Under the pieces are notes generated by a model. It was not told the DNA's origin, made no database searches, and saw only the letters and a list, made by a program, of their open reading frames with translations. Position numbers and translations under genes: made by a program. From Escherichia coli (lineage in GTDB: Bacteria > Pseudomonadota > Gammaproteobacteria > Enterobacterales > Enterobacteriaceae), in NCBI RefSeq assembly GCF_024502345.1, contig NZ_JALDNN010000001.1: 64,000 nt of DNA; one strand, given 5' to 3'. Within the stretch, counting starts at the first letter, position 1; the number at the start of each line of letters is the position of its first letter. Below are positions 6,736-64,000 of this stretch, piece by piece.

Positions 6736-6812
<77 letters not shown>

Positions 6813-6844
6813 TCACCGTACTGCTTTATTTCATTAAATTTGAT

Positions 6845-6921
<77 letters not shown>

Positions 6922-6954
6922 TCACCGTACTGCTTTACTTCATCAAATTTTAAT

Positions 6955-7031
<77 letters not shown>

Positions 7032-8424: not shown

Positions 8425-8524
8425 TGCCGGATGCGGCGTGAACGCCTTATCCGGCCCACAAATCATGCAAATCCAAAATATTGCAGGAGTTATGTAGGCC
8501 TGATAAGCGTAGCGCATCAGGCAT
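8425..8524. repeat. BIME: two inverted REP (palindromic unit) elements
   Basis: gccggatgcggcgtgaacgccttatccggcc and gtaggcctgataagcgtagcgcatcaggc match the E. coli REP consensus. Confidence 0.8.
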
Positions 8525-11516: not shown

Positions 11517-11722
11517 AAAAAAAAGCACCGCAATTAGGCGGTGCTACATTAATCACTATGGACAGACAGGGTAAATGTACAGGAAGTGAAAAAAGGTAGC
11601 TTTGCTACCATGGTCTGAATCGCAGACCAATTGCAAACACAACAACACAACATCACAACCGTAAGCCAAAAGTTCACCAGAACACGCATTCCGATAAAAC
11701 TTTTCGTTCCGGCTCAGGAAGT
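11517..11722 (-). ncRNA. gcvB: GcvB small regulatory RNA (about 206 nt)
   Basis: Minus strand reads ACTTCCTGAGCCGGAACGAAAAG...GTTGTGATGTTGTGTTGTTGTGTTTGCAATTGG... and ends in a hairpin GCACCGCCTAATTGCGGTGC plus U-run; recognised as E. coli GcvB, divergent from gcvA. Confidence 0.9.
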
Positions 11723-11850: not shown

Positions 11851-12768
11851 ATGTCTAAACGATTACCACCGCTAAATGCCTTACGAGTTTTTGATGCCGC
11901 AGCACGCCATTTAAGTTTCACTCGCGCAGCAGAAGAGCTTTTTGTGACCCAGGCCGCAGTAAGTCATCAAATCAAGTCTCTTGAGGATTTTTTGGGGCTA
12001 AAACTGTTCCGCCGCCGTAATCGTTCACTCCTGCTGACCGAGGAAGGGCAAAGCTATTTCCTCGATATCAAAGAGATATTTTCGCAATTAACCGAAGCGA
12101 CGCGTAAACTCCAGGCCCGTAGCGCCAAGGGGGCGTTGACGGTCAGTTTACTCCCCAGTTTCGCCATTCATTGGTTGGTTCCGCGACTTTCCAGCTTTAA
12201 TTCAGCTTATCCGGGAATTGACGTTCGAATCCAGGCGGTTGATCGTCAGGAAGATAAACTGGCGGATGATGTTGATGTGGCAATTTTTTATGGCCGGGGC
12301 AACTGGCCGGGGCTACGGGTGGAAAAACTGTACGCCGAATATTTATTGCCGGTGTGTTCGCCGCTACTGCTGACTGGCGAAAAACCCTTGAAGACCCCGG
12401 AAGATCTGGCTAAACATACGCTATTACATGATGCGTCACGCCGTGACTGGCAGACATATACCCGACAGTTGGGGTTAAATCATATCAACGTTCAGCAAGG
12501 GCCAATTTTTAGCCATAGCGCCATGGTGCTGCAAGCGGCTATCCACGGGCAGGGAGTGGCGCTGGCAAATAACGTGATGGCGCAATCTGAAATTGAAGCC
12601 GGACGTCTTGTTTGCCCGTTTAATGATGTTCTGGTCAGTAAAAACGCTTTTTATCTGGTTTGTCATGACAGCCAGGCAGAACTGGGTAAAATAGCCGCCT
12701 TTCGCCAATGGATCCTGGCGAAAGCCGCTGCTGAACAAGAAAAATTCCGCTTTCGTTATGAACAATAA
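11851..12768 (+). CDS. gcvA: Glycine cleavage system transcriptional activator GcvA (LysR family, 305 aa)
   Basis: 305-aa ORF with LysR-type N-terminal HTH; recognised as GcvA. Confidence 0.93.
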   Translation: MSKRLPPLNALRVFDAAARHLSFTRAAEELFVTQAAVSHQIKSLEDFLGLKLFRRRNRSLLLTEEGQSYFLDIKEIFSQLTEATRKLQARSAKGALTVSLLPSFAIHWLVPRLSSFNSAYPGIDVRIQAVDRQEDKLADDVDVAIFYGRGNWPGLRVEKLYAEYLLPVCSPLLLTGEKPLKTPEDLAKHTLLHDASRRDWQTYTRQLGLNHINVQQGPIFSHSAMVLQAAIHGQGVALANNVMAQSEIEAGRLVCPFNDVLVSKNAFYLVCHDSQAELGKIAAFRQWILAKAAAEQEKFRFRYEQ

Positions 12769-29894: not shown

Positions 29895-30259
29895 TCGACA
29901 GGGAGTCAGACAACGAAGTGAACATCAGGATGATGACACTTCTGCAGGACACACCAGGATGGTGTTTCAGGGAAAGGCTTCTGGATGAAGCGAAGAGGAT
30001 GACGCAGGACGCGTTAAAGGACACCTCCAGGATGGAGAATGAGAACCGGTCAGGATGATTCGGTGGGTCAGGAAGGCCAGGGACACTTCAGGATGAAGTA
30101 TCACATCGGGGTGGTGTGAGCAGGAAGCAATAGTTCAGGATGAACGATTGGCCGCAAGGCCAGAGGAAAAGTTGTCAAGGATGAGCAGGGAGCAACAAAA
30201 GTAGCTGGAATGCTGCGAAACGAACCGGGAGCGCTGTGAATACAGTGCTCCCTTTTTTT
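29895..30259 (+). ncRNA. csrB: CsrB regulatory RNA (CsrA-sequestering, multiple GGA motifs)
   Basis: About 365 nt with roughly 18 repeated CAGGA(U)G/AGGA motifs and a terminal hairpin GGGAGCGCTGTGAATACAGTGCTCCC plus U-run. Confidence 0.9.
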
Positions 30260-30304
30260 ATTCCTGCTATCCTTCGCGGCAGTTTTTCTTATTGAGGTTG
30301 CTTT

Positions 30305-48998: not shown

Positions 48999-49670
48999 AT
49001 GCAGTACCCGATTAACGAGATGTTCCAGACCCTGCAAGGTGAGGGTTACTTTACCGGCGTCCCCGCCATTTTTATTCGTTTACAGGGATGCCCGGTTGGC
49101 TGTGCCTGGTGCGACACCAAACACACCTGGGAAAAGCTTGAGGATCGGGAAGTCTCCCTTTTCAGCATTCTGGCGAAGACCAAAGAGAGTGATAAGTGGG
49201 GGGCGGCGAGCAGTGAAGACTTGTTGGCTGTCATTAGTCGCCAGGGATACACCGCGCGGCATGTGGTGATTACGGGTGGTGAGCCTTGCATTCATGATTT
49301 GCTACCACTGACTGATCTGCTCGAAAAGAACGGTTTTAGCTGCCAGATCGAAACCAGTGGTACTCATGAGGTACGCTGCACACCGAATACCTGGGTTACC
49401 GTATCACCAAAGCTGAACATGCGCGGCGGCTATGAAGTGTTGTCACAGGCACTGGAGCGAGCCAACGAAATCAAGCATCCAGTGGGGCGCGTACGTGATA
49501 TTGAAGCACTGGATGAACTACTGGCAACGCTGACCGATGATAAACCGCGAGTCATTGCACTGCAGCCGATTAGCCAAAAGGATGATGCCACACGTTTGTG
49601 CATTGAAACCTGCATTGCGCGTAATTGGCGTTTGTCGATGCAAACACATAAATATCTAAATATTGCCTGA
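48999..49670 (+). CDS. queE: 7-carboxy-7-deazaguanine synthase QueE (YgcF, radical SAM, 223 aa)
   Basis: 223-aa ORF with radical-SAM cysteine motif CPVGCAWCDT. Confidence 0.9.
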   Translation: MQYPINEMFQTLQGEGYFTGVPAIFIRLQGCPVGCAWCDTKHTWEKLEDREVSLFSILAKTKESDKWGAASSEDLLAVISRQGYTARHVVITGGEPCIHDLLPLTDLLEKNGFSCQIETSGTHEVRCTPNTWVTVSPKLNMRGGYEVLSQALERANEIKHPVGRVRDIEALDELLATLTDDKPRVIALQPISQKDDATRLCIETCIARNWRLSMQTHKYLNIA

Positions 49671-49689
49671 TTAAACATTTATAAGCGTT

Positions 49690-50009
49690 ATAAATGGGTG
49701 GAACCTGTAAAGACTTCTACTCATTTATATTGTTTGTCGCCTCTGAAAACTCCTCCATTTTACCCATCCAGGGCTAATCATTAGCATTCTCTACAAATTC
49801 TGTGGCATTAATTTTTCGCTGGAGTGAAAATTATTGCGGTAAAGTTTGGTAGATTTTAGTTTGTATAGAGTTATTTTAAATATTTACCTTTTTAATCAAT
49901 GGATTAAGTGCTCTTTAACATAATGGATGTGTTGTTTGTGTGATACTATAAAGTTGGTAGATTGTGACTGGCTTAAAAAATCATTAATTAATAATAGGTT
50001 ATGTTTAGA
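49690..50009 (+). promoter_or_regulatory. AT-rich CRISPR leader
   Basis: AT-rich non-coding stretch directly abutting the first repeat, on the side opposite the degenerate terminal repeat. Confidence 0.6.
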
Positions 50010-50832
50010 GTGTTCCCCGCGCCAGCGGGGATAAACCGCGCGATTTGTTAGCGCCCGTTGCGCCTGGTGGGTGTTCCCCGCGCCAGCGGGGATAAACCGC
50101 GCGAGTTCGTGCGCATGGGGCGCATTTTTGGCGTGTTCCCCGCGCCAGCGGGGATAAACCGCGGCGTTCATGCCCTCCAGCACTGTTACGCGGGTGTTCC
50201 CCGCGCCAGCGGGGATAAACCGTAGTCAAGCGGTAATTCATCGCCTGCAGATCCGAGTTCCCCGCGCCAGCGGGGATAAACCGGCTAATTTACGTAATTT
50301 ACGTGCTATTGCACTGAGTTCCCCGCGCCAGCGGGGATAAACCGTGGGTCATGCCGGTGATCGCCTGCCCGTCGTGGAGTTCCCCGCGCCAGCGGGGATA
50401 AACCATCACCACCGCTTGTCATAAAATTAGCGTCATAGAGTTCCCCGCGCCAGCGGGGATAAACCGGGGAGTGGCACTTCTGGGGTAGCGGCGGCCCTGA
50501 GTTCCCCGCGCCAGCGGGGATAAACCGTCAACGCGCTCAGACGTTGCGTGAGTGAACCAGAGTTCCCCGCGCCAGCGGGGATAAACCGAAATATCCAGGG
50601 CTGGGCTGGAGGCAGACGGCGAGTTCCCCGCGCCAGCGGGGATAAACCGGCGTTGATGTTCTTGCGGGTGTTGCAAATATTGAGTTCCCCGCGCCAGCGG
50701 GGATAAACCGTTTCAGCAGTTCAGCGTAACACCGACGGTCACGAGTTCCCCGCGCCAGCGGGGATAAACCGCCCGGAATGCATTCTGAAGGTTTGCTGTA
50801 TATGAGTTCCCCGCGCCAGCGGGGATAAACCA
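50010..50832 (+). CRISPR. Type I-E CRISPR array: 14 repeats of 29 bp, 13 spacers (32-33 bp)
   Basis: Repeat GAGTTCCCCGCGCCAGCGGGGATAAACCG at strict 61-62 bp periodicity from 50010 to 50804; the first 3 repeats carry a GTG variant, and repeats 7 and 14 end in A. Confidence 0.97.
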
Positions 50833-51286
50833 CCATATAACCCGTTATCTCTTTCTCAAGTTTTTATATTAGCAGTACTTGTAATAAGCAACATATCCAC
50901 GTAACACCTCATGTTCAAAATAGTTCTCCATGCCAGAGAGGTTCACAATTATCGATACAAAAAATTAAATTTAATCAAAGTGTTATTTGTATGACTCTTA
51001 AATCGTTAAGAAATTTTAATCTATTATTTTTTTAATATTGAATTAATGCCTGTTAATTTTTTCTTTAGAATAACAGTATATTTTTTAAGCTTGTTATTCA
51101 TTGGTTAAGTAATAAATCTGGAAGTTTGTCTTTGTTTTGAGGCTAATGAGTGGTTTTACATAACCGCCTCTATACGCTGTTGATGAATAGTTCTTATGAA
51201 TAAAGATATCCAGTTCATACTTTAAGTGAAAATTGATAAAGTGCGATTCGTATTGTCTTTAATTCTAAAGACATCGAGTGTAGTTA

Positions 51287-51425
51287 ATATTCCTTGTAAA
51301 AACAGGGATAAACCGAACTAGTTAAAGTTTTTATTATGTTCCCTGCATCAGCGGGGATAAACCGGACTTGTTATCATTTTTTAAGTTGTCGAACTTATGT
51401 TCCCCGCGTCAGCGGGGATAACCAT
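51287..51425 (+). CRISPR. Degenerate CRISPR remnant (about 3 diverged repeats)
   Basis: ATGTTCCCTGCATCAGCGGGGATAAACCG and ATGTTCCCCGCGTCAGCGGGGATAACCAT separated by a 32-bp spacer, preceded by a partial ...CAGGGATAAACCG copy. Confidence 0.75.
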
Positions 51426-51437
51426 TTAGGTATGTTC

Positions 51438-51463
51438 AGGCCGGGCAGTTTTCCGCCCGGCCT
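51438..51463. terminator. GC-rich hairpin downstream of ygcE (no clear T-run)
   Basis: 9-bp stem aggccgggc/gcccggcct with an 8-nt loop. Confidence 0.4.
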
Positions 51464-51470
51464 ACCTCAT

Positions 51471-52949
51471 TCACGCATTCGACCAGCTCTGGATCGAATC
51501 CACATTCCCCAATTCCCCATGCATCACTTCATACGATTTTTTCAGGATCACATCAGTATGTTTGGTTAGGTCTTTGAAAATGCCTTTATTCATCGCGTCG
51601 TAGCGTTTGGCATTGCTCTCAATCGGTATAAAGATATCTTTCACGCGAACCATCTTATCAACAGCCGTTGCGTAATCCGGGTATAGCCCCAGACCTACCG
51701 CTGTATTAATCGCTGCTCCCAGACTTGCACAACCGTTAATGGCGTTACGGCGTGCCGGAAGGTTGAACACGTCGGCAAAAATTTGCATAAACAGATCGCT
51801 GTTCGAACCGCCGCCAGTAATGATCACATGCTTCGCAAAGTGATTCATTTCATTACACATATTGTCGTAATTGTTCTTCAGCGTTAGCGCCACGCTTTCC
51901 AATATCGAACGATATATCCATGCGTAATCCATGCTGGAATCAAAGCCGATCATAATCCCGCGTTTGTACGGTTCCCACGGATTGGTCAGCCAGTCCAGCA
52001 CCGTCATCAGCCCATTACAGCCAGGTGGCACACTAGAGGCTTTCTTGTTGAGTAAATCTTCCGGTGAAAGATCCTGCGCCCTGGCATCCTGAATTAACGA
52101 CTCGCCTAACATGTCACGCAGCCAGCTCACCGTCCACATACCTTTGCGAATACCGTAACCTTCATACAGCAATGTTTGCGGAATAGAAGACATAATCGGC
52201 CAGTACGCCACCGGATCTTTCGGCAGTGCTTTGCCGTTCATCATCAATGCGATGTAAGTGCCAAGAGAAATTACCGCAGTTTCATCATCCAGTAATCCGG
52301 CCCCCAGAGCTTCTACCGGTTTATCACTGGTGGTACAAACAACCGGCAGTCCTGCCGGGAAATGTGTCGCCAGTGCGGCTTGTGGTGTGATATGTCCGAG
52401 GACGGTGCCAGGCATTTGCACATCAAACAGCATATGACGGGGGATATTAAACTTATCCATTACCGCAGCATCTTCGCTCCATGCCCAGCTCTTATAATCC
52501 ACCGGCCACTGACCAAAATAGTTGGCGATATTGTCTTTAAACTCGCCGGTTAAGCGATGCGTCAGATAACCCGAAAAAGAGGTGACATACGCCACGTCAG
52601 GATTCGTATGTTCGTAAGGGCGTGTAACGCGTGCATCCTGCCAGCTAATCAACGGCGCAGCTGGCGTGCCGTCGGCTTTCAATAACGCACGGCAGCAACG
52701 GATGGAGCCCAGGCCGATGCCAACAATATCTTCTTTATTCCCGGCAAACTGGCTCATCAAATCGTGACCTGCAAAACATAATGATGCCCATAAATCGTCG
52801 TCAGGATGTTCTGCAGTATCGGCATAAGGCGTGTGCATCGGCTGTAATAAGCCTTTACCTTCGCAAACCACATTACCTTCCAGATCGTACATCACCACTT
52901 TTGTGCTCTGACTTCCGCCATCAATCCCTATGATGTATTTTTTCGACAT
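51471..52949 (-). CDS. ygcE: FGGY-family carbohydrate kinase YgcE (492 aa)
   Basis: 492-aa ORF MSKKYIIGIDGGSQSTKVVMYD... with actin-like ATPase motifs. Confidence 0.85.
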   Translation of the reverse strand: MSKKYIIGIDGGSQSTKVVMYDLEGNVVCEGKGLLQPMHTPYADTAEHPDDDLWASLCFAGHDLMSQFAGNKEDIVGIGLGSIRCCRALLKADGTPAAPLISWQDARVTRPYEHTNPDVAYVTSFSGYLTHRLTGEFKDNIANYFGQWPVDYKSWAWSEDAAVMDKFNIPRHMLFDVQMPGTVLGHITPQAALATHFPAGLPVVCTTSDKPVEALGAGLLDDETAVISLGTYIALMMNGKALPKDPVAYWPIMSSIPQTLLYEGYGIRKGMWTVSWLRDMLGESLIQDARAQDLSPEDLLNKKASSVPPGCNGLMTVLDWLTNPWEPYKRGIMIGFDSSMDYAWIYRSILESVALTLKNNYDNMCNEMNHFAKHVIITGGGSNSDLFMQIFADVFNLPARRNAINGCASLGAAINTAVGLGLYPDYATAVDKMVRVKDIFIPIESNAKRYDAMNKGIFKDLTKHTDVILKKSYEVMHGELGNVDSIQSWSNA

Positions 52950-52975
52950 GATTTTTCTCCTGTAATTTTCCTGGC

Positions 52976-54253
52976 TTACTTGCTGCTAGCCATTGCGGGG
53001 GCGCTATCAGCAGTACGAATTTTTTGGAACAGCAAAAAGGTAAAGACAATCACCATGGCAAGCGCCGCCATTCCCATCAGCCACATATTGCGGTAGGCTT
53101 CTGCTGCGGGCAGGGTGTCTTGCCAGTGGCCGATAATCGGGTAAACGAAGACATCCGGCAGGAATCCAATCACCGAACAAATACCTACCGTGGTGCCCAT
53201 AATGTAAGACGGTGTTCTCGCTTCGCCAGGGCAGGCCCAGTACAGCCCGCGTGAGGCGTAACAGGTGAATCCCAGCAGTAAAATCAGGCCAATCCCCATC
53301 GCGACCGATTGCGGGTTAGAGTTCGTGACGAGCAGGGCAGTTAACGCCAGCAGGTCGAGTACGGAAAGGATTTGGATCACGCGGGTAGGGGATTTCACTT
53401 TACTGTAGGTGGTGATAATGCCGCCAAGTGGGCCGCACAGCGCGCGGAAGATTTTGTTGATCACAATCCCCATGTAGCTCGCTGCCACCAGCGACATGCC
53501 GTACATTTCGGTCAGATAGTTGGTGGAGTAACTCAGAATGGCGTAGATTGTGAAGACACCAAAAATCACCATGCTGCAATACCAGGTGGTGCTGATACGC
53601 AAAACGGCAAGGATGTCGCTAAGCTGGAATGACTGTTTTTCTTCGTTATTGGCACTGCGCAGGTTGTTGTTATCGCTAACAAAAAACCAGCACAGAATCC
53701 CCAACAAGATGTAAACCACACTGTAGATGATAATGACTGTTTTCAGGCTGGCGCTGTCATCCGGTGCAAAGCGAGAAAAGACCCACATGGTAAACACCGC
53801 CAGCGACATTACACCGACGCCGCGCAGCCCTTCCATCCAGCCCATAATTTTCCCTTGCTCACTATGATCGCCCAGCAACGAGGCGGCTTTAATCGACACC
53901 GACCACAGCATTAAAATCGTCGTTATCGCAAAGGCGACCTGAATACAGAGCATTACCCACAGCGGTGGATACGTTGCCATTAACAGACCCAGTAATCCGG
54001 TAATGATCATCGCGGAAGTAATCATTTTGCGGTGTGAAAATTTATCGGCAATAACGCCGCTGGGGGCATAAAGAATAATAGCCGCAATACCAAAGGTACT
54101 CATTATTAAACCTATCTCGGTATTGCTGAATCCCATAAATTTCGCCATGGGAATTTGATAAATATAACGTAAATAAGCCAGGTCAAAACTAACGCCGCCG
54201 CTAAAACTAATTATCGCGAGGGTTATCCAACGGCGATATGAGTTGTGTTGCAT
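52976..54253 (-). CDS. yqcE: MFS transporter YqcE (425 aa)
   Basis: 425-aa 12-TM-like ORF directly upstream of ygcE on the same strand. Confidence 0.8.
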   Translation of the reverse strand: MQHNSYRRWITLAIISFSGGVSFDLAYLRYIYQIPMAKFMGFSNTEIGLIMSTFGIAAIILYAPSGVIADKFSHRKMITSAMIITGLLGLLMATYPPLWVMLCIQVAFAITTILMLWSVSIKAASLLGDHSEQGKIMGWMEGLRGVGVMSLAVFTMWVFSRFAPDDSASLKTVIIIYSVVYILLGILCWFFVSDNNNLRSANNEEKQSFQLSDILAVLRISTTWYCSMVIFGVFTIYAILSYSTNYLTEMYGMSLVAASYMGIVINKIFRALCGPLGGIITTYSKVKSPTRVIQILSVLDLLALTALLVTNSNPQSVAMGIGLILLLGFTCYASRGLYWACPGEARTPSYIMGTTVGICSVIGFLPDVFVYPIIGHWQDTLPAAEAYRNMWLMGMAALAMVIVFTFLLFQKIRTADSAPAMASSK

Positions 54254-54431
54254 ATCGTATTCCCATTTGTAATAGAAAAAAAAAAGAGAAAAGTAAGCCG
54301 CCCTTTCAGGTGGATTACTTTTCTCAGGTCTCTAGTAATTGCAATAAGAAATAACATGGAAAGCAGAGGTGTTGTGTGAGAGTAATCACGCTTCTGCTTT
54401 TTAAAACTATTTGACAATACGAATATCACAC

Positions 54432-54447
54432 TGTGATTACGATCACA
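54432..54447. promoter_or_regulatory. Consensus CRP site in the yqcE / ygcW divergent intergenic region
   Basis: TGTGA-ttacga-TCACA, perfect match to both half-sites. Confidence 0.6.
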
Positions 54448-54498
54448 TTAGCAGTTATGCCGTTATGCTAAAAATTATCTCCAGTTACCAGAGATAAT

Positions 54499-54547
54499 GA
54501 GAAAGGTAACTTCCCTCTCGCGGGGGAAGTTACCTTTCTTTTTTTTT
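54499..54547 (+). terminator. Strong intrinsic-terminator-like hairpin in the ygcW leader (candidate attenuator)
   Basis: Perfect 16-bp stem agaaaggtaacttccc/gggaagttacctttct, loop tctcgcg, then a T9 run; ends 25 bp before the ygcW ATG. Confidence 0.7.
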
Positions 54548-54571
54548 GCCTTACGGAAATTGGAGCTAACT

Positions 54572-55357
54572 ATGTCAATCGAATCTCTCAATGCGTTCTC
54601 AATGGATTTTTTCTCACTGAAAGGTAAAACCGCAATTGTTACCGGTGGGAATAGCGGTTTAGGCCAGGCATTTGCCATGGCGTTGGCCAAAGCTGGCGCA
54701 AATATCTTTATTCCTAGTTTCGTCAAAGATAACGGCGAAACAAAGGAAATGATTGAAAAACAGGGTGTTGAGGTGGACTTCATGCAGGTGGATATCACCG
54801 CAGAAGGCGCGCCGCAGAAGATTATCGCTGCTTGCTGTGAGCGTTTCGGTACAGTTGATATTCTGGTAAACAATGCCGGTATTTGTAAGCTGAATAAGGT
54901 GCTGGACTTCGGTCGTGCCGACTGGGATCCGATGATTGATGTGAACCTGACCGCCGCATTCGAGTTAAGCTATGAAGCGGCAAAAATTATGATCCCGCAG
55001 AAAAGCGGCAAAATTATTAATATCTGTTCATTGTTCTCTTACTTAGGTGGACAATGGTCACCTGCATATTCTGCCACTAAACATGCTCTTGCCGGATTCA
55101 CCAAAGCTTATTGTGATGAACTAGGTCAATATAATATTCAGGTAAATGGTATTGCCCCTGGCTATTATGCAACAGATATTACGCTGGCGACACGCAGTAA
55201 TCCAGAAACCAATCAGCGCGTTCTTGATCATATTCCGGCAAACCGTTGGGGCGATACTCAGGATTTAATGGGCGCAGCTGTATTCCTCGCAAGTCCGGCT
55301 TCAAATTATGTCAATGGGCATTTATTAGTGGTCGATGGTGGTTATTTAGTGCGCTAA
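54572..55357 (+). CDS. ygcW: Short-chain dehydrogenase/reductase YgcW (261 aa)
   Basis: ORF 54497..55357; start set at MSIESLNAF after a GGAG RBS; SDR motif TGGNSGLG. Confidence 0.85.
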   Translation: MSIESLNAFSMDFFSLKGKTAIVTGGNSGLGQAFAMALAKAGANIFIPSFVKDNGETKEMIEKQGVEVDFMQVDITAEGAPQKIIAACCERFGTVDILVNNAGICKLNKVLDFGRADWDPMIDVNLTAAFELSYEAAKIMIPQKSGKIINICSLFSYLGGQWSPAYSATKHALAGFTKAYCDELGQYNIQVNGIAPGYYATDITLATRSNPETNQRVLDHIPANRWGDTQDLMGAAVFLASPASNYVNGHLLVVDGGYLVR

Positions 55358-55426
55358 TCCATAACGGTGGTTTCTGTTTTCTCTTATTAATGATTATTCC
55401 ATTTTTATTATCAGGAAGGAATTACT

Positions 55427-56881
55427 ATGTCTTTATCTCGCGCAGCGATTGTCGACCAACTAAAGGAAATTGTTGGTGCAGATCGCGTAATTACCGATGA
55501 AACAGTATTAAAGAAGAACAGTATTGACCGTTTTCGTAAATTTCCGGATATTCATGGCATTTATACTTTGCCGATTCCGGCAGCGGTCGTAAAACTCGGT
55601 TCCACAGAGCAAGTATCCCGTGTGCTGAATTTTATGAATGCGCACAAAATTAACGGTGTGCCGCGTACCGGTGCTTCCGCCACCGAAGGTGGGCTGGAAA
55701 CTGTTGTAGAAAACTCGGTGGTGCTCGACGGTTCCGCCATGAATCAAATCATTAATATTGATATTGAGAATATGCAGGCGACGGCGCAATGTGGCGTTCC
55801 CCTGGAAGTGCTGGAAAATGCGTTGCGTGAAAAAGGTTACACCACGGGGCATTCTCCGCAGTCAAAGCCGCTGGCGCAGATGGGCGGCCTGGTAGCAACC
55901 CGCAGTATCGGGCAGTTCTCCACACTCTACGGCGCAATCGAAGATATGGTCGTTGGTCTGGAGGCAGTGTTGGCAGATGGCACCGTCACACGCATTAAAA
56001 ACGTGCCACGCCGCGCGGCTGGCCCGGACATTCGTCACATCATCATCGGCAACGAAGGTGCATTGTGCTATATCACTGAAGTAACAGTGAAAATCTTTAA
56101 ATTCACCCCGGAAAACAACCTCTTCTACGGCTATATCCTGGAAGACATGAAAACCGGCTTCAACATCCTGCGTGAAATCATGGTGGAAGGGTATCGTCCG
56201 TCGATCGCTCGTTTGTATGACGCTGAAGATGGCACCCAACACTTCACCCATTTTGCCGACGGTAAATGTGTGCTGATCTTTATGGCTGAAGGCAATCCTC
56301 GCATTGCGAAGGCGACGGGCGAAGGGATTGCGGAAATCGTTGCCCGCTACCCGCAGTGCCAGCGCGTGGACAGCAAACTGATCGAAACCTGGTTTAACAA
56401 CCTGAACTGGGGACCGGATAAAGTGGCTGCCGAACGTGTGCAGATCCTCAAAACCGGCAACATGGGCTTTACCACTGAAGTGTCCGGCTGCTGGAGCTGC
56501 ATCCACGAAATCTACGAAAGCGTTATTAACCGTATTCGTACTGAGTTCCCGCACGCCGACGACATCACCATGCTGGGCGGTCACTCCTCTCATAGCTATC
56601 ATAACGGCACCAACATGTACTTCGTCTACGATTACAACGTCGTTGACTGTAAGCCGGAAGAGGAAATCGACAAGTACCACAATCCGCTCAACAAGATCAT
56701 CTGTGAAGAAACCATTCGCCTCGGCGGTTCGATGGTGCACCACCACGGTATCGGTAAACATCGCGTTCACTGGAGCAAACTGGAACACGGCAGCGCGTGG
56801 GCGTTGCTGGAAGGGCTGAAAAAGCAGTTCGATCCTAATGGCATTATGAATACGGGTACTATCTATCCGATTGAAAAATAA
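55427..56881 (+). CDS. ygcU: FAD-linked oxidoreductase YgcU (GlcD/vanillyl-alcohol-oxidase superfamily, 484 aa)
   Basis: 484-aa ORF with FAD-binding PCMH-type domain features. Confidence 0.8.
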   Translation: MSLSRAAIVDQLKEIVGADRVITDETVLKKNSIDRFRKFPDIHGIYTLPIPAAVVKLGSTEQVSRVLNFMNAHKINGVPRTGASATEGGLETVVENSVVLDGSAMNQIINIDIENMQATAQCGVPLEVLENALREKGYTTGHSPQSKPLAQMGGLVATRSIGQFSTLYGAIEDMVVGLEAVLADGTVTRIKNVPRRAAGPDIRHIIIGNEGALCYITEVTVKIFKFTPENNLFYGYILEDMKTGFNILREIMVEGYRPSIARLYDAEDGTQHFTHFADGKCVLIFMAEGNPRIAKATGEGIAEIVARYPQCQRVDSKLIETWFNNLNWGPDKVAAERVQILKTGNMGFTTEVSGCWSCIHEIYESVINRIRTEFPHADDITMLGGHSSHSYHNGTNMYFVYDYNVVDCKPEEEIDKYHNPLNKIICEETIRLGGSMVHHHGIGKHRVHWSKLEHGSAWALLEGLKKQFDPNGIMNTGTIYPIEK

Positions 56882-56974
56882 TGTGTCAGGCAGCGTTCCG
56901 CGATGACGGGGCGTTGCCTTTTCGGCTTCTCAGGCGAGAAGCCGTTCTTATTACCGGACAATGAAGGGGTAAAG

Positions 56975-58312
56975 ATGAACACTTCACCGGTGCGAATGGA
57001 TGATTTACCGCTTAACCGTTTTCACTGCCGCATTGCTGCGCTCACTTTCGGCGCACACCTGACCGACGGTTATGTTCTCGGCGTCATTGGTTACGCCATT
57101 ATTCAGCTTACGCCCGCCATGCAACTGACGCCGTTTATGGCGGGAATGATCGGCGGCTCGGCGCTCCTTGGTTTGTTTCTTGGCAGCCTGGTTCTTGGGT
57201 GGATCTCCGACCATATTGGTCGGCAAAAAATCTTCACCTTCAGCTTTTTGCTGATTACGCTCGCTTCGTTCTTGCAATTTTTTGCCACCACGCCAGAGCA
57301 TCTTATTGGGCTGCGCATTTTGATCGGCATTGGGCTGGGAGGCGATTACTCAGTTGGTCACACCTTGCTGGCTGAATTTTCCCCGCGCCGCCATCGCGGT
57401 ATTTTGCTGGGCGCATTCAGCGTGGTGTGGACCGTAGGTTATGTGCTGGCAAGTATTGCCGGACATCACTTTATTTCCGAAAACCCGGAGGCCTGGCGCT
57501 GGCTGCTGGCATCGGCAGCTCTGCCCGCATTGTTGATTACGTTATTACGCTGGGGAACGCCAGAATCGCCACGCTGGCTACTGCGCCAGGGGCGTTTTGC
57601 AGAAGCTCACGCTATCGTGCATCGCTATTTTGGTCCCCATGTTTTACTGGGCGATGAAGTGGCAACGGCGACCCATAAACACATCAAAACCTTGTTCTCT
57701 TCGCGCTACTGGCGGCGTACGGCGTTTAACAGCGTCTTCTTTGTCTGCCTCGTAATTCCATGGTTTGTGATTTATACCTGGCTGCCAACTATCGCCCAGA
57801 CTATTGGACTGGAAGATGCGCTGACTGCCAGCCTGATGCTTAATGCGTTGTTAATTGTGGGCGCGCTGCTGGGATTAGTTCTGACGCACCTGCTGGCACA
57901 TCGCAAGTTTTTGCTGGGAAGTTTTTTGCTGCTGGCGGCAACGCTGGTAGTGATGGCCTGTTTGCCTTCCGGCAGTTCATTAACGCTACTGCTTTTTGTT
58001 CTCTTCAGCACCACCATTTCGGCAGTCAGTAATCTGGTGGGCATTTTGCCTGCGGAAAGTTTTCCTACTGACATTCGCTCGCTGGGCGTCGGTTTTGCCA
58101 CCGCCATGAGTCGGTTGGGGGCGGCGGTAAGTACTGGCCTGCTGCCGTGGGTGCTGGCGCAGTGGGGAATGCAAGTTACCTTATTGATCCTGGCGGCAGT
58201 GTTGTTAGTTGGTTTTGTCGTGACCTGGCTATGGGCACCAGAAACCAAAGCACTCCCGCTGGTGGCGGCGGGAAATGTAGGAGGTGCGAATGAACATTCT
58301 GTTAGCGTTTAA
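56975..58312 (+). CDS. ygcS: MFS sugar-porter-like transporter YgcS (445 aa)
   Basis: ORF 56903..58312; start set at MNTSPVRMDDLPLNRF; sugar-porter-like motifs. Confidence 0.8.
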   Translation: MNTSPVRMDDLPLNRFHCRIAALTFGAHLTDGYVLGVIGYAIIQLTPAMQLTPFMAGMIGGSALLGLFLGSLVLGWISDHIGRQKIFTFSFLLITLASFLQFFATTPEHLIGLRILIGIGLGGDYSVGHTLLAEFSPRRHRGILLGAFSVVWTVGYVLASIAGHHFISENPEAWRWLLASAALPALLITLLRWGTPESPRWLLRQGRFAEAHAIVHRYFGPHVLLGDEVATATHKHIKTLFSSRYWRRTAFNSVFFVCLVIPWFVIYTWLPTIAQTIGLEDALTASLMLNALLIVGALLGLVLTHLLAHRKFLLGSFLLLAATLVVMACLPSGSSLTLLLFVLFSTTISAVSNLVGILPAESFPTDIRSLGVGFATAMSRLGAAVSTGLLPWVLAQWGMQVTLLILAAVLLVGFVVTWLWAPETKALPLVAAGNVGGANEHSVSV

Positions 58313-59069
58313 AGCCGAACCGGATGCCGGAATGCTGGCGGAAAAAGAGTGGCAGGCGGCGGCTCAGGGTAATAGCGGACCGGATGTTTCGCTACTGCGA
58401 AGTTTACTCGGTGCTGATGAACAGGCTGCCGCCGCGCTGCTGTTGGCGCAGATAAAAAACGGTACGCCGATGTCTTTAACCGCGTTGAGCATGGGGGATG
58501 AACGGGCGTTACACTGGCTGCGCTATCTCATGGCTCTTGGGTTTGAGGAAGCTGTATTGCTGGAGACGGCGGCAGATCTGCGCTTTGCACCGGAATTTGT
58601 CGCTCGCCATATTGCCGAATGGCAGCGTCAGAATCCGCTGGATCTGATAATTACCGGCTGCCAAAGCAGCGAAGGGCAGAATTGGCAAACGCCATTTTTG
58701 CTGGCGGAAATGCTGGGCTGGCCCTGCTTCACCCAGGTGGAGCGTTTCACTCTCGACGCGCCGTTTATCACCCTCGAACAGCGTACTGAACATGGGTTGC
58801 GTTGTTGCCGGGTTCGCTTGCCTGCGGTGATTGCCGTGCGCCAGTGTGGTGAAGTGGCCTTGCCAGTACCGGGAATGCGCCAGCGAATGGCTGCGGGGAA
58901 AGCGGAAATTATCCGTAAAACTGTTGCTGCCGAATTGCCAGCGATGCAGTGTCTGCAACTGGCAAGAGCAGAGCAACGACGCGGAGCGACGCTGATTGAT
59001 GGGAAAACGGTAGCAGAAAAAGCGCAAAAGCTATGGCAGGACTATTTACGCCAAAGGATGCAGCCATGA
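58290..59069 (+). CDS. ygcR: Electron transfer flavoprotein beta-subunit-like protein YgcR (FixA-like)
   Basis: 259-aa ORF overlapping the ygcS 3' end; ETF-beta-like. Confidence 0.75.
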   Translation: MNILLAFKAEPDAGMLAEKEWQAAAQGNSGPDVSLLRSLLGADEQAAAALLLAQIKNGTPMSLTALSMGDERALHWLRYLMALGFEEAVLLETAADLRFAPEFVARHIAEWQRQNPLDLIITGCQSSEGQNWQTPFLLAEMLGWPCFTQVERFTLDAPFITLEQRTEHGLRCCRVRLPAVIAVRQCGEVALPVPGMRQRMAAGKAEIIRKTVAAELPAMQCLQLARAEQRRGATLIDGKTVAEKAQKLWQDYLRQRMQP

Positions 59070-59926
59070 ATATCGCAATTGTGACAATAAATCAGGAGAA
59101 TGCCGCATTAGCGGGCTGGCTGGCGGCGCAGGATTTCAGCGGTTGTACCCTGGCGCACTGGCAAATAGAACCACAGCCCGTAGTGGTGGAACAGGTGCTG
59201 GATGCGCTGGTGGAACAGTGGAAGCGAACGCCTACGGACGTTGTTCTCTTTCCGCAGGGAACGTTTGGCGATGAACTGTCGACCCGGCTGGCCTGGCGTT
59301 TACATGGTGCAAGCATCTGCCAGGTGACTTCGTTAGATATTCCAACCGTAAGCGTGCGCAAATCCCACTGGGGAAATGCGCTAACGGCGACGCTGCAAAC
59401 AGAAAAACGCCCGCTATGCCTTTCCCTGGCGCGTCAGGCGGGAGCAGAGAAAAACGCCACGTTGCCCTCTGGTATGCAGCAACTGAACATTGTCCCAGGT
59501 GCGCTTCCCGACTGGCTGGTTAGCATAGAGAATCTGAAAAATGTTAGCCGCGACCCATTAGCTGAAGCCAGACGGGTGCTGGTGGTGGGGCAGGGCGGAG
59601 AGGCAGATAACCAGGAAATCGCTATGCTGGCAGAAAAGCTGGGAGCCGAAGTGGGCTACAGTCGGGCGCGAGTGATGAACGGTGGCGTTGATGCTGAAAA
59701 AGTGATTGGTATTTCCGGACATCTGCTGGCACCTGAGGTGTGTATTGTTGTTGGCGCTTCTGGCGCAGCAGCGTTAATGGCGGGCGTACGCAATAGCAAG
59801 TTTGTGGTGGCGATTAATCATGACGCCAGCGCAGCGGTATTTTCACAGGCAGATGTTGGCGTGGTTGATGACTGGAAAGTGGTGCTGGAGGCACTGGTGA
59901 CAAACATTGACGCAGAATGCCAATAA
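59066..59926 (+). CDS. ygcQ: Electron transfer flavoprotein alpha-subunit-like protein YgcQ (FixB-like, 286 aa)
   Basis: ORF 59033..59926; start set at MNIAIVTINQ, overlapping the ygcR stop (ATGA). Confidence 0.75.
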   Translation: MNIAIVTINQENAALAGWLAAQDFSGCTLAHWQIEPQPVVVEQVLDALVEQWKRTPTDVVLFPQGTFGDELSTRLAWRLHGASICQVTSLDIPTVSVRKSHWGNALTATLQTEKRPLCLSLARQAGAEKNATLPSGMQQLNIVPGALPDWLVSIENLKNVSRDPLAEARRVLVVGQGGEADNQEIAMLAEKLGAEVGYSRARVMNGGVDAEKVIGISGHLLAPEVCIVVGASGAAALMAGVRNSKFVVAINHDASAAVFSQADVGVVDDWKVVLEALVTNIDAECQ

Positions 59927-59970
59927 CGTGCTGCCGGATGATCCTGCCTACGGTTCTGGACTGGGGACCT

Positions 59971-60007
59971 GTAGGCCTGATAAGACGCGTTAAGCGTCGC
60001 ATCAGGC
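59971..60007. repeat. REP element between convergent ygcQ and ygcP
   Basis: gtaggcctgataagacgcgttaagcgtcgcatcaggc. Confidence 0.75.
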
Positions 60008-60072
60008 GCTGAAGGTCGGATGTGGCATGCAGCCTACAAATCACACAAATTCAATTCGTTACGATTATCCCG

Positions 60073-60648
60073 TCAAAGCAATTTTTTAGCTAACGTCCAG
60101 ACTCCGGTATTCGTGGTGGAAAGCGCCACGACACCCGCGTTAATCGCATTACGCGCATTTTCTTCATCGCATACCAGCCCGCCAGCAATCAGCGGTTGAC
60201 GGATTTTCTCCGTCACCCAGCCCAGCACTTTGGGCATACAGCCAGGCAGGATCTCAATACAATCCGGATTCGATTGCGCAACTTGCTTATCAATGTTGTG
60301 AAACGAAATTGAATCAACAATAAACAGGCGATGAATACAGAAAAAACCTTCCGCTCTTGCCGCTTTCAGCATTGAGGCTTTGGTACTGATAATTCCGTCC
60401 GCCTCGGTCACCAGTTTCAAAAACTGAATCACGACTTCTTTATTTGACGCGCCTTCCAGCAAATCAACATGAATAAAAGCATATTTCCCGGCGTTCTTAA
60501 TCTTTTTAACGATATTACTGATGGTGCAGATATTGCCGTACAACACGGAAATAAACTGGCATTCAGAGTCGATTGCCAGTTGCAGGCTGGCATTATCTTT
60601 AACGGCAGCAATCACCGGATTCTGGCGGAGCAGGTGTAAGAGGGGCAT
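60073..60648 (-). CDS. ygcP: GlpP-family putative RNA-binding antiterminator YgcP (191 aa)
   Basis: 191-aa ORF recognised as belonging to the glycerol-3-phosphate responsive antiterminator (GlpP) family. Confidence 0.75.
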   Translation of the reverse strand: MPLLHLLRQNPVIAAVKDNASLQLAIDSECQFISVLYGNICTISNIVKKIKNAGKYAFIHVDLLEGASNKEVVIQFLKLVTEADGIISTKASMLKAARAEGFFCIHRLFIVDSISFHNIDKQVAQSNPDCIEILPGCMPKVLGWVTEKIRQPLIAGGLVCDEENARNAINAGVVALSTTNTGVWTLAKKLL

Positions 60649-60664
60649 AAATTATCCTTTTTAC

Positions 60665-60925
60665 TTATCCAAAGCGGTAGGTGATGCCGAATCCGGAAGG
60701 CGGATAGCGCCACTGTTGTAGTGTTTTTTCGTCGCACAGCAAACGGCAGGTGCCACACTCCAGGCAGCCGTGATAATCAACGCGTAAGTCACCTTCCGGT
60801 GTGAGCGAAAAAAGACCAGCCGGACAAGCGTTAATCAACCGTTGTACCGTCTGGCGCTCAACGGAGTCAGCCGGAACAATGTGCGGCGCATCGGCAACGC
60901 GCCAGAGATTACGGGCTACAGACAT
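60665..60925 (-). CDS. ygcO: Ferredoxin-like protein YgcO (FixX-like, 86 aa)
   Basis: Cys-rich short ORF (CPAGLF...CLECGTC); overlaps the ygcN 3' end. Confidence 0.75.
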   Translation of the reverse strand: MSVARNLWRVADAPHIVPADSVERQTVQRLINACPAGLFSLTPEGDLRVDYHGCLECGTCRLLCDEKTLQQWRYPPSGFGITYRFG

Positions 60926-62187
60926 CGAACACTCCTGATAACATCGCCCGCCAGATGCCACAGGCCATGACGACGTAAATGACGCCAGAGTAACTGGCGC
61001 AGCGGTGGAACAGGTTTATCACCCTGATCCCATAAATCGCGGGAAATATCCTGCATTAACGCAGGCCACGTACGGTACCATCCCGGGCGTTGCAAAAGCG
61101 CCGGAACATGCTGATAACGCTGTAGAACATCCCACAGCAGGCTGCGCTCGACGTTGTGATGATAAAGCGGAAACAGATTTTGCGGCTCGCGGTGCTGGCA
61201 GGCGCTTATCAGTGTTTGTGCCGCCGCCTGCGCGCCAGTTAGCGCCGTATCCATGCCGCGCACGGAAATTCCGGTATTGACGCAACTGCGCAACGCATCG
61301 CCTACCAGCAGCCAGCCGTTACCGGCGTATTGCACTGGCATACTGTGCAAGCCACCTTCTGGCACCAGATGCGCACCATACTCCAGTGATTCCGTGTTTT
61401 TGATAAGCGGGCGCACTGCCGGATGCGTTTTAAAGCGAGCCAGCAGCTCGCTTGCCGGAACACGACTTTGCGTAAGGGAAGAGAGCGGGCAAACAATCCC
61501 TAACGAGAGCGTTTGTTGATTAGTATAAAGAAATGCGCCGCCGGGAAAGTCATCACAGATTCCGCCGCTGAACAGCAACGCTGCGCCTTCGTTATTCTCC
61601 AGATGAAAACGTTCTTCAATAGCGGATGTTTCCAGCGACAGCACTTCTTTGATCCCCAACGCCATCGCTTCGCCAGCAGGACGAGTCACTAATCCGTGAC
61701 GTTCAGCCAGGACGCTGTTGGCACCTTCTGCCAGCACCACATAACGGGCGCGGAGAATATCGTCACCACAAATGACACCACACACCCTGCCGTTTTCTTC
61801 ATACAGTGCATTCACCGTCGCTCCGGGGATGCATTCGACACCTTCTTTTTCGGCTTCGGCAACCAGCCACGGATCGAACCGTGCACGTAATACACTCCAG
61901 GATTCACCGCCGGGCTGTAAGCTGGAAAATGTCGTTACGCCATCGGGCGTTAACAGGGAAAGGCTTTCGTGAGTGATGCGTCGTTCAAGAGGCGCGGTCA
62001 GATGAAATTGCGGGAGGAGTTCCGCGAGTGCATGGGTATATAACCGCCCGCCGGAAAGATTTTTGCTGCCGGGGATTTCAGCGCGTTCCAGTAACAAAAC
62101 GGATAAACCCGCTCGCGCGCAGCGTAACGCGCAAGCGGTGCCTGCAATACCGGCACCAATAATAATAATGTCGCAGTCGTCTTCCAT
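60916..62187 (-). CDS. ygcN: FAD-dependent oxidoreductase YgcN (FixC/ETF-QO-like, 423 aa)
   Basis: ORF 60916..62217; start set at MEDDCDIIIIGAGIAG (Rossmann FAD motif). Confidence 0.8.
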   Translation of the reverse strand: MEDDCDIIIIGAGIAGTACALRCARAGLSVLLLERAEIPGSKNLSGGRLYTHALAELLPQFHLTAPLERRITHESLSLLTPDGVTTFSSLQPGGESWSVLRARFDPWLVAEAEKEGVECIPGATVNALYEENGRVCGVICGDDILRARYVVLAEGANSVLAERHGLVTRPAGEAMALGIKEVLSLETSAIEERFHLENNEGAALLFSGGICDDFPGGAFLYTNQQTLSLGIVCPLSSLTQSRVPASELLARFKTHPAVRPLIKNTESLEYGAHLVPEGGLHSMPVQYAGNGWLLVGDALRSCVNTGISVRGMDTALTGAQAAAQTLISACQHREPQNLFPLYHHNVERSLLWDVLQRYQHVPALLQRPGWYRTWPALMQDISRDLWDQGDKPVPPLRQLLWRHLRRHGLWHLAGDVIRSVRCL

Positions 62188-62264
62188 GTCATGCCCCAGA
62201 TATCCAGAACACAACACCCTAACATAGCGTTACTTAAGGGAAATTGACCGCCGACACACTCTTA

Positions 62265-62630
62265 TCATTCGCCGCGATAGATACAACCAGCGGTGCAGGT
62301 TTCTTTTACCATCACCGCACTTAACAGCGGCACAACGGGTTTAACCTGATCCCAAATCCATTTTGCTAAAACTTCGCTGGTCGGGTTTTCCAGGCCTGGA
62401 ATATCATTGAGATAATGGTGATCGAGGCGCTCATAAGTTGGCTTAAACGCTGCTTTCAGTTCAGCGAAATCGATAACCCAGCCCGTATGCGGATCGACTT
62501 CCCCGGTAATTTCCAGTCGCACCATAAAGGAATGCCCGTGCAGGCGACCACATTTATGCCCTTCCGGGACGTGTGGTAAGCGGTGAGCGGCTTCGAAGGT
62601 GAAATCTTTAAATAACGTGGTGGACATCAT
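62265..62630 (-). CDS. queD: 6-carboxy-5,6,7,8-tetrahydropterin synthase QueD (YgcM, 121 aa)
   Basis: ORF 62265..62714; start set at [33 protein letters not shown] (zinc-binding CxxxHGH). Confidence 0.88.
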
Positions 62631-62945
62631 AATTTCTCTACAGGACGATAAAACCGCCGTAGAGTACCGGAAAGGCTGTTTTTTCGCATTATCTAAAACG
62701 ACTTTGTTGCGCAAAATCGCTGATTTATCTTAATGATTGGCTAAATTCATTTGTTTTTCATTAGGTTGGTTAATCTATTTTGTTGTTAAAGACTATTGCT
62801 AAAACAGGTTAGTCGATTTGGTTATTAGTTATCGCTATCCCGTCTTTAATCCACACCGTTCACCCCGTTAACCTTACCTTCTCTTCTGTTTTATGGGCGC
62901 TGACAGGGCGCAGAAACAGCTTTGCTTACTGGAACATAACGACGC

Positions 62946-64000
62946 ATGACGACACAGGTCCCACCTTCCGCGTTGCTTCCGTTGAACCCGGAGCAACTGG
63001 CACGCCTTCAGGCGGCCACGACCGATTTAACTCCCACCCAGCTTGCCTGGGTTTCTGGCTATTTCTGGGGCGTGCTCAATCAGCAGCCTGCTGCGCTTGC
63101 AGCAACGCCAGCGCCAGCCGCAGAAATGCCGGGTATAACTATTATCTCCGCCTCGCAAACCGGCAATGCGCGCCGGGTTGCTGAAGCATTACGTGATGAT
63201 TTATTAGCGGCAAAACTGAACGTTAAGCTGGTGAACGCGGGCGACTATAAATTCAAACAAATCGCCAGCGAAAAACTGCTTATCGTGGTGACGTCAACGC
63301 AAGGAGAAGGGGAACCGCCGGAAGAAGCCGTCGCGCTGCATAAGTTCCTGTTCTCCAAAAAAGCGCCGAAGCTGCAAAACACCGCATTTGCCGTGTTTAG
63401 CCTCGGCGATAGCTCTTATGAATTTTTCTGCCAGTCCGGGAAAGATTTTGACAGCAAGCTGGCGGAACTGGGCGGTGAACGCCTGCTCGACCGTGTCGAT
63501 GCCGACGTTGAATACCAGACCGCTGCCAGCGAGTGGCGCGCTCGCGTGGTTGATGCGCTTAAATCGCGTGCGCCTGTCGCGGCACCTTCGCAATCCGTCG
63601 CTACTGGCGCGGTAAATGAAATCCACACCAGCCCGTACAGCAAAGACTCGCCGCTGGTGGCGAGCCTCTCTGTTAACCAGAAAATTACCGGGCGTAACTC
63701 TGAAAAAGACGTTCGCCATATCGAAATTGACTTAGGTGACTCGGGCCTGCGTTACCAGCCGGGTGACGCGCTGGGCGTCTGGTATCAGAACGATCCGGCA
63801 CTGGTGAAAGAACTTGTCGAACTGCTGTGGCTGAAAGGCGATGAACCTGTCACCGTCGAGGGCAAAACGTTGCCTCTGAACGAAGCGCTACAGTGGCACT
63901 TCGAACTGACCGTCAACACCGCCAATATTGTTGAGAACTATGCCACGCTTACCCGCAGCGAAACGCTGTTGCCGCTGGTGGGCGATAAAGCGAAGTTACA
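62946..64000 (+). CDS. cysJ: Sulfite reductase [NADPH] flavoprotein alpha-component CysJ, N-terminal part (3' end outside the window)
   Basis: ATG at 62946; hand translation [42 protein letters not shown]... stays open to the window edge; absent from the ORF track only because it has no stop in the window. Confidence 0.9.

Follow-up and report, generated by a model that had tools for sequence, protein, structure and literature searches.

The stretch of E. coli DNA analyzed here (64,000 nucleotides; hereafter the window) contains a CRISPR array accompanied by no cas genes, in which the repeats nearest the leader differ from the others at their second position, and one internal repeat shares its last base with the terminal repeat. 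The locus raises the question of which known array this is, whether it has been orphaned, and how its two kinds of repeat came together. The array is the CRISPR2.3 array (CRISPR-II) of the E. coli type I-E system, which occupies a fixed chromosomal site between queE and ygcE. In the explanation that we regard, as a whole, as likely, this array would be an orphan and a chimera of two allele types, with its youngest spacers next to the leader, spacer targets in temperate phages, and an internal repeat (R7) whose last base arrived with a spacer.

The results from exact repeat mapping bear out the 14 repeats, the 13 spacers and each of the 13 spacer coordinates given in the initial annotation. The 26-nt core of the repeat, GTTCCCCGCGCCAGCGGGGATAAACC, occurs in 14 exact copies at a spacing of 61–62 nt between 50012 and 50831, where none is expected by chance (100 shuffles). 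The spacers are 32 nt long in 12 of 13 cases, S2 being 33 nt, and none has a match elsewhere in the window, hence there is no self-targeting. The repeat is predicted to form a hairpin of the Cas6e type with a 7-bp stem and a 4-nt loop (-15.1 kcal/mol; z about -3.3 to -3.6), which would leave an 8-nt 5' handle, ATAAACCG; repeat position 2 lies outside the stem. A type I-E array is transcribed rightward from the leader, and Cas6e cleaves each repeat hairpin of the transcript at its base, so that crRNAs of 61 nt are released; Cascade with its crRNA then locates AWG-flanked protospacers and Cas3 degrades the target. New spacers are placed by Cas1-Cas2 at the leader/R1 junction, with duplication of 28 nt of R1, while the 29th nucleotide is PAM-derived. 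All 14 repeats of the window fit the published consensus of the E. coli type I-E repeat, GWGTTCCCCGCGCCAGCGGGGATAAACCG (PMC3338789), and vary only at W (position 2) and at the last base.

In its gene order, relA-mazEFG-pyrG-eno-ygcG-queE, array, ygcE-yqcE-ygcWUSRQPON-queD-cysJ, the window is collinear with annotated genomes, and the presence of GcvB and CsrB (Rfam) likewise identifies the window as E. coli chromosome; at the Rfam gathering thresholds no family was reported for the array itself. The array is correctly placed between queE, upstream, and the ygc cluster, of which ygcE is the downstream neighbor. The 339-bp leader matches the CRISPR2.3 leader of K-12 MG1655 at 100% over its full length, and the type I-E assignment is sustained by the repeat consensus, spacing, hairpin, leader and flanking genes. 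Both flanks are AT-rich (30% and 28% GC), so that base composition alone cannot orient the array; its orientation follows from the sense of the repeat and from comparison, the right-hand spacers being widely shared and the left-hand ones not. Using a simple sigma-70 model, a scan for promoters and terminators found no excess of sites over shuffled sequence, and the plus strand of the leader had none. The CRISPR-II locus, which comprises CRISPR2.3 and CRISPR2.2 in the ygcE–ygcF interval, was set out by Almendros et al. (PMC3903273). A CRISPR2.2 remnant, overlooked in the initial annotation, lies 0.5 kb downstream of the CRISPR2.3 array and is kept in NCTC9064, ML775, K-12, JNEC-KY179 and Res13. 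The downstream flank gene ygcE differs at 1 of 1,477 nt from both NCTC9064 and ML775, and at 37 from K-12.

Table. Features of the CRISPR2.3 locus and its surroundings, in window coordinates.
Feature	Position	Strand	Description
queE (ygcF), upstream flank gene	48999..49670	+	haplotype of KL53/ECONIH4 type, not K-12 type
CRISPR2.3 leader	49671..50009	+	queE stop to repeat 1; AT-rich, 30% GC
CRISPR2.3 array	50010..50832	+	14 repeats of 29 nt, 13 spacers; crRNA sense left to right
Leader-proximal block	50010..50222	+	R1-R4, GTG (CRISPR-A type), spacers S1-S3
Distal block	50255..50832	+	R5-R14, GAG (CRISPR-T type), S5-S13; S4 just upstream, between R4 and R5
S2	50100..50132	+	30/33, portal/minor-head gene of STEC384 prophage (annotated DUF1073), ATG PAM
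S3	50162..50193	+	32/32, lambdoid viral contig IMGVR_UViG_2713896897_000016 (L014) 5206-5237, ATG PAM
S6	50345..50376	+	29/32, Salmonella phage ST64B gene sb44 and relatives, E = 0.07, ATG PAM
Repeat 7	50377..50405	+	ends ...ACCA, not ...ACCG
S7	50406..50437	+	flank rebuilt from overlapping spacer is GCA, a non-consensus PAM
S12	50711..50742	+	27/32, tail-region gene of same STEC384 prophage as S2 (L003 19873), ATG PAM
CRISPR2.2 remnant	51287..51425	+	three decayed repeats, no leader
ygcE, downstream flank gene	51471..52949	-	
cysJ, first 351 codons	62946..64000	+	cut by window end; in relatives cysI, cysH, hok/sok and cas3 then follow

The spacers nearest the leader, S1–S3, are the youngest of the array. 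None of the 5,426 complete E. coli genomes contains them; five other public assemblies have them, likewise with four GTG repeats. Together with the window these form a lineage of six arrays (window, ERZ920157, ERZ1304739, GCA_050023715, GCA_050029375 and GCA_002543795) that have in common an identical leader, four GTG repeats and S1–S5. Apart from internal losses and one duplication the six are alike, and none carries a spacer newer than S1. The fullest of them, ERZ920157, reads S1 S2 S3 S4 S5 x1 x4 S6 S7 x20 x5 x6 S8-S13, and relative to it the window array is without x1, x4, x20, x5 and x6. At least one spacer of the S4–S13 set is shared by 368 of the 5,426 complete genomes, and NCTC9064 has eight of the window spacers in the same order.

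The comparison of the spacers with phage, plasmid and prophage sequences, which had been proposed as a check, was productive for S2, S3, S6 and S12, each of which matched a temperate-phage gene (Table); BLAST of the 13 spacers against plasmids gave chance-level matches only, with the exception of a 24-nt match of S11 to a record that is really a chromosome. The S3 protospacer lies in a phrog_1138 ORF; the replication genes resembling lambda O and P are two genes away. The gene matched by S6 encodes a phage DNA methyltransferase or PAPS-reductase-like protein, and the five mismatches of S12 all fall in one codon phase. The PAM (AWG) reads ATG before all four protospacers found, as expected for the majority, non-K-12 variant of cas-E, of which CWT (equivalent to AWG) is the acquisition motif. 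The four spacers record encounters with temperate enterobacterial phages. No target was found for S1, S4, S5, S7–S11 and S13 by BLAST, or in the viral, metagenome and genome collections searched for some of them. Exact-pattern scans of IMG/VR with S1 (IUPAC, two variants) and S2 (IUPAC) gave no match, nor did a genome scan with the core of S1. The same phage regions have been sampled repeatedly, since S1 and S2 are similar to spacers in the CRISPR-I arrays of other strains (the reverse complement of S2 is a CRISPR-I spacer in 26 genomes among the matches listed) and S11 overlaps a spacer of K-12-type arrays.

The mapping confirmed that R7 and the terminal repeat R14 (50804-50832) both end in ...ACCA, a likeness initially taken as the possible mark of an old array junction. 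The spacer that follows R7, S7, is absent from all 5,426 complete genomes. However, a CRISPR-I spacer on the opposite strand, present in 30 genomes including STW0522-31, overlaps S7 by 24 nt. In STW0522-31 the reverse complement of this spacer reads GTTCAGCA followed directly by TCACCACC..., so that an A precedes the S7 protospacer. Reciprocally, S7 predicts a C before the overlapping CRISPR-I spacer, and that spacer's own repeat ends in ...ACCC. The two spacers rebuild 40 nt of the target, GTTCAGCA, TCACCACCGCTTGTCATAAAATTA and GCGTCATA in succession (that is, GTTCAGCATCACCACCGCTTGTCATAAAATTAGCGTCATA). [quoted passage not shown] The final A of R7 is thus supported as the PAM-derived (-1) nucleotide that would have arrived with S7, on an argument consisting of two single-base agreements with a chance of roughly 1 in 10–16, the S7 target itself not having been found. 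Scanning IMG/VR for the 24-mer of S7 returned nothing, and one metagenome scan and a genome scan returned only CRISPR-I arrays with the opposite-strand spacer, and no target. The ...ACCA repeat stands before S7 in every lineage array that retains S7. Variants of position 29 (A, C or T) occur as scattered singletons in many arrays; the 14 internal ones that we compared are scattered rather than in blocks, and the only adjacent identical pair is part of a duplicated repeat-spacer unit. The final A of the terminal repeat, for its part, is fixed in nearly all CRISPR2.3 arrays read. Ectopic (internal) integration of S7 was also considered and dropped, since S7 holds the same position in four of the six lineage arrays and one adjacent loss (S7 and x20) explains its absences.

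The absence of cas genes from the window was confirmed by tblastn, in which none of the eight Cas proteins, taken from both E. coli I-E variants, had a match and the CysJ control matched 62946-63998. This absence within 64 kb says little about the strain, because the window stops in cysJ and the canonical cas3 site is some 3.9 kb further on: in ECONIH4, cas3 begins 4,931 nt after the start of cysJ. The order past cysJ in NCTC9064, KL53, ML775, ECONIH4 and K-12 is cysI, cysH, hok/sok (sokX in K-12), cas3, Cascade genes, cas1, cas2, CRISPR-I and iap, and the cas site is about 17 kb from the array in all five. ECONIH4 and K-12 have a complete cas-E locus; in NCTC9064 (casA stop), ML775 (casB frameshift) and KL53 (loss of casB-cas6e) it has partly decayed. 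Near-identical contigs were found by look-ups with the YqcE and YgcN variants of the window in larger public collections. Seven contigs have 0–4 mismatches to window positions 50915–64000 over 13,086 bp, and all seven have a common deletion junction that joins position 20327 (in cas3) to position 26623 (in cas2) in ECONIH4 numbering. The deletion, of 6,295 bp with 2 bp of microhomology, removes the 3' end of cas3, casA, casB, cas7, cas5, cas6e, cas1 and the 5' end of cas2. Some contigs thereby encode an in-frame Cas3'-'Cas2 fusion of 753 aa, a protein present on 16 contigs; in others it is already split or not called as a gene. In one of the seven, GCA_050023715.1 (JBAOMP010000011.1), the deletion and an array beginning S1 S2 S3 S4 S5 occur in the same record. 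The CRISPR-I arrays of the deletion contigs have their first spacer in common and differ by losses only, and such loss-only divergence of both arrays is the pattern expected after loss of cas1.

The two kinds of repeat in the window array correspond to the CRISPR-A/CRISPR-T polymorphism, i.e., the W at the second repeat position (Diez-Villasenor 2013; PMC3737337). GTG is carried by R1 (50010), R2 (50071), R3 (50133) and R4 (50194), and GAG by R5–R14; the initial count of only three GTG repeats had missed R4. We surveyed 54 distinct arrays (39 CRISPR-II, 13 CRISPR-I and 2 unclassified), and in all 54 position 2 shows either no transition or a single one along the array, the variants always forming contiguous blocks. 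This block inheritance is as predicted by copying of the leader-proximal repeat, and for the window array alone the one-block order of 4 T and 10 A has a probability of 0.002 under random order. Interspersed GTG and GAG repeats, the pattern that had been named as speaking against a chronology of acquisition, were seen in no array. The order proposed in that chronology, with the leader-proximal spacers newest, is right, but four GTG repeats correspond to three spacers and not two.

The leader adjoining these repeats is informative. A leader with GTG-R1 identical at 100% to that of the window is found in at least 60 genomes, and at 99% or more in 2,626. Outside the lineage, the arrays with an identical leader all start with GTG (13 of 13) and share no spacer with the window, whereas those sharing spacers of the S4–S13 set are all-GAG (12 of 12), with 5–6 leader SNPs (at 49859, 49902, 49910, 49948 and 50008, plus 49905 in some). 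The flanks are mosaic as well, with queE of KL53/ECONIH4 type, a leader of K-12 type, and ygcE of NCTC9064/ML775 type. Both the mosaic flanks and the pattern of leader, repeats and spacers would be accounted for by a junction between the leader and S4. Thus, the array is probably a chimera, in which a K-12-type leader with four GTG repeats and S1–S3 was joined, within or next to R4, to the S13-anchored GAG family. It would have arisen by homologous recombination with a common K-12-type CRISPR2.3 allele, the junction most simply lying inside a repeat. Recombination between repeats would also explain why the same old spacer stands behind GTG in one K-12-type array and behind GAG in another. The association of leader type with repeat type is not strict, since arrays one base away from the leader of the window can be all-GAG. 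A donor array with S1–S3 in another context was not found among complete genomes, and the genome search revealed no intermediate with GTG directly before S4 but without S1–S3. According to Kupczok et al. (PMC4524480), spacer order alone needs no recombination to explain E. coli arrays.

The initial annotation had explained the GTG repeats by a mutation in the first repeat. In this account a private A-to-T change (GAG to GTG) in R1 was copied at each later in situ acquisition by active Cas1-Cas2, which agrees with the contiguity of the position-2 variants, expected if R1 is the template, with the position of S4 in NCTC9064 and ML775, where it is the first spacer and stands behind GAG, and with the occurrence of S1–S3 behind GTG repeats only; the ATG PAMs of S2 and S3 are, moreover, typical of genuine acquisition. 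A lone point mutation nevertheless leaves unexplained the linked changes in the adjoining leader, which differs at 5–6 positions from all other S13-anchored arrays and equals the K-12-type leader, the same leader that carries GTG at R1 in each of the 13 other arrays. GTG is, in addition, the commonest variant at CRISPR2.3 and so no private change, and the count first stated, three repeats and two spacers, is wrong. With GTG being common and the K-12-type leader linked to it, we consider the mutation unlikely and not the best reading, and recombination with a K-12-type allele rather likely to be the better explanation of the structure. S1–S3 may have entered by that recombination or have been gained later. 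The K-12-type leader, the GTG repeats and S1–S3 might have been imported as a unit by homologous recombination, possibly into a strain already without cas1, which we put forward tentatively, as a possibility that is on balance doubtful.

Two further alternatives concern the state and the history of the array. An intact type I-E cas operon just past the end of the window would make the array fully functional, and the cas-E locus does lie about 17 kb away in every annotated genome examined. There is also a close relative, ERZ1314738 (6 mismatches in 13 kb), with intact cas3 and casA, and the perfect match of S3 to a phage contig suggests a fairly recent acquisition. When used as queries, YgcE and the YqcE variant of ERZ1314738 matched very common proteins, and the array of this relative was not retrieved. 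Against a functional array, the closest contigs (0–1 mismatch in 13 kb) all have the cas3'-'cas2 deletion, neither array of any lineage member shows a spacer gained after S1, and cas pseudogenes are frequent even in the cas-bearing strains of the array family; we consider this alternative quite improbable. Since seven near-identical contigs share the deletion at the cas site, which itself lies outside the window, the strain of the window very probably has it too, and the array is probably an orphan. Of the two options initially offered, cas genes elsewhere or an orphan array, the latter is thus probably right, while the argument from 64 kb of cas-free sequence was weak. Without the Cascade genes, cas6e and cas1, the array would be neither processed nor extended, and would change only by spacer loss and duplication, which probably makes it a static record of earlier phage encounters. 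The proposal that R7 is a former terminal repeat at which two arrays were joined draws on the ...ACCA end common to R7 and R14. This agreement is limited to one base, the sequences following R7 and R14 are unrelated, and related arrays are collinear through the point (S6 ... S8). An A also flanks the S7 protospacer, and variants at position 29 are scattered in many arrays and known to be PAM-derived and not propagated. A junction at R7 is accordingly unsupported and extremely improbable.

The array has some practical value. S1–S3 behind four GTG repeats serve as a marker of a lineage, a clade seen in isolates and gut metagenomes. The array is also a natural illustration of two rules, i.e., that the inner base of the repeat is inherited in blocks from R1 and that the last base travels with the spacer. 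It further provides a caution that an array cannot be called an orphan from a cas-free window if the known cas site is immediately beyond the edge of that window. If the recombination is true, the window would offer a concrete chimeric array from a species in which exchange of this kind has been debated. If the import of the whole block into a strain without cas1 is true, the array would have gained spacers without adaptation machinery, and would clearly exemplify natural recombination within an E. coli array, which analyses of spacer order had failed to detect (PMC4524480); as recombination of E. coli arrays is debated, this would be of modest interest.

The locus, the repeat, the leader, the repeat variants, the PAM-derived base, spacer loss and cas deletion have all been described already. 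The window array, which is real and ordinary, adds a new allele to this known locus. The CRISPR2.3 array of K-12 MG1655 resembles it in site, 339-bp leader, repeat, the CRISPR2.2 remnant downstream, GTG repeats at the leader end, and a terminal GAG repeat that ends in A. In contrast, the two share no spacers, and K-12 has 6 where the window has 13, the distal ten spacers of the window belonging to another spacer group than those of K-12, one anchored by S13. Members of this S13-anchored group (NCTC9064, ML775, KL53, ECONIH4 and others) share up to eight spacers in the order of the window but, unlike it, are all-GAG, have a leader with 5–6 SNPs, and are without S1–S3 and S7. With respect to the CRISPR-A/CRISPR-T variants, the GTG and GAG repeats equal the published W position, and the ...ACCA repeat before S7 fits the rule that the last base comes from the PAM (Swarts 2012); neither is new in kind, although the window array shows both published effects together, as a block at position 2 and as singletons at position 29. 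The closest known category consists of E. coli without cas genes that retain I-E arrays, such as BL21 and arrangements B–G of Almendros et al. 2014. Compared with these strains, in the near-identical relatives of the window one internal deletion accounts for the loss, with an in-frame Cas3'-'Cas2 fusion and the CRISPR-I leader remaining.

S2 and S11 of the array (CRISPR2.3, type I-E) correspond to targets that have been sampled more than once. The protospacer of S2, which lies in a prophage of E. coli STEC384, was also taken up in the reverse orientation as a spacer of CRISPR-I, the array adjoining the cas operon, in 26 of the genomes listed. The S2 version implies that ATG flanks the 32-bp core of this protospacer on either strand (5'-ATG...CAT-3'). 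Both S2 and the opposite-strand spacer are 33 nt in length, and each takes in the base of the other strand's PAM. In S11, the final 23 nt are identical to the initial 23 nt of a spacer found in K-12-type CRISPR2.3 arrays; the two are on the same strand with an offset of 9 nt and therefore represent independent sampling of one target. Read from S11, the PAM of the K-12-type spacer is ATG. A 24-nt stretch overlapping S11 was the sole match to NZ_OL790696.1, a 4.8-Mb E. coli record in the PLSDB plasmid collection, which is evidently a chromosome, though filed among plasmids.

A spacer overlapping S7 is present in the CRISPR-I array of E. coli STW0522-31 and in that of JAEWTL010000035.1 (L025). 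The latter contig, labelled 'MAG: Bacillota bacterium OH_SDB_141', carries E. coli-type cas6e-cas1-cas2 as well as the array, and is most likely a binning contaminant of the Bacillota MAG.

Among the strains whose CRISPR2.3 arrays are anchored by S13, four with cas genes were examined, and three of these have disabling lesions in the cas locus; the I-E system seems to be in decay throughout the family. In contigs near-identical to the window, the deletion of casA through cas1 leaves an in-frame fusion of 753 aa, Cas3(1-679)-Cas2(24-97). Sixteen contigs, some from isolates and some from gut metagenomes, carry it in intact form. Other near-identical contigs have the fusion split, or no gene called, which suggests decay rather than function. 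Downstream of the array lies a CRISPR2.2 remnant, absent from the initial annotation, which is kept in K-12, NCTC9064, ML775, JNEC-KY179 and Res13. The RNA genes detected with Rfam are ordinary E. coli features, and served only to place the window.

Features of the window and of related loci
Feature	Record	Coordinates	Strand	Remarks
S2	window	50100-50132		
S2 protospacer	STEC384 prophage (L003)	12001-12033		
Opposite-orientation counterpart of S2	JNEC-KY179 (L004)			CRISPR-I spacer 2
S11	window	50650-50681		
S11-overlapping spacer	97-3250, A7, EA2 (L015, L017, L018)			K-12-type CRISPR2.3 arrays
cas locus	NCTC9064 (L006)			casA internal stop
cas locus	KL53 (L007)			casB-to-cas6e deletion, IS421 close by
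cas locus	ML775 (L008)			casB frameshift
Cas3-Cas2 fusion gene	GCA_050022275.1 (L037)	2053-4314		also on 15 other contigs
CRISPR2.2 remnant	window	51287-51425		degenerate type I-E repeats (three), 0.5 kb downstream of array
Three identical tandem tRNA genes	window	6739-7031	-	
ES036 sRNA	window	8459-8501	+	
GcvB	window	11517-11722	-	
CsrB	window	29903-30262	+	

Repeat variants were also seen in other arrays. In CRISPR-I of STW0522-31 (L013), a second SNP inside the repeat (GCGCCAGC versus GCGTCAGC) is likewise distributed in blocks, with C in R1-R9 and T in R10-R29; the sole exception, C in R30 and T in R31, may mark an internal rearrangement. The CRISPR2.3 array of E. coli J2 (L016) includes a tandem duplication of a repeat-spacer unit at spacers 8-9, and both copies keep the unusual repeat end ...ACCC; the last base of the repeat therefore travels with its spacer. 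The J2 duplication is resembled by that of spacer x4, a spacer of the lineage arrays, in ERZ1304739.
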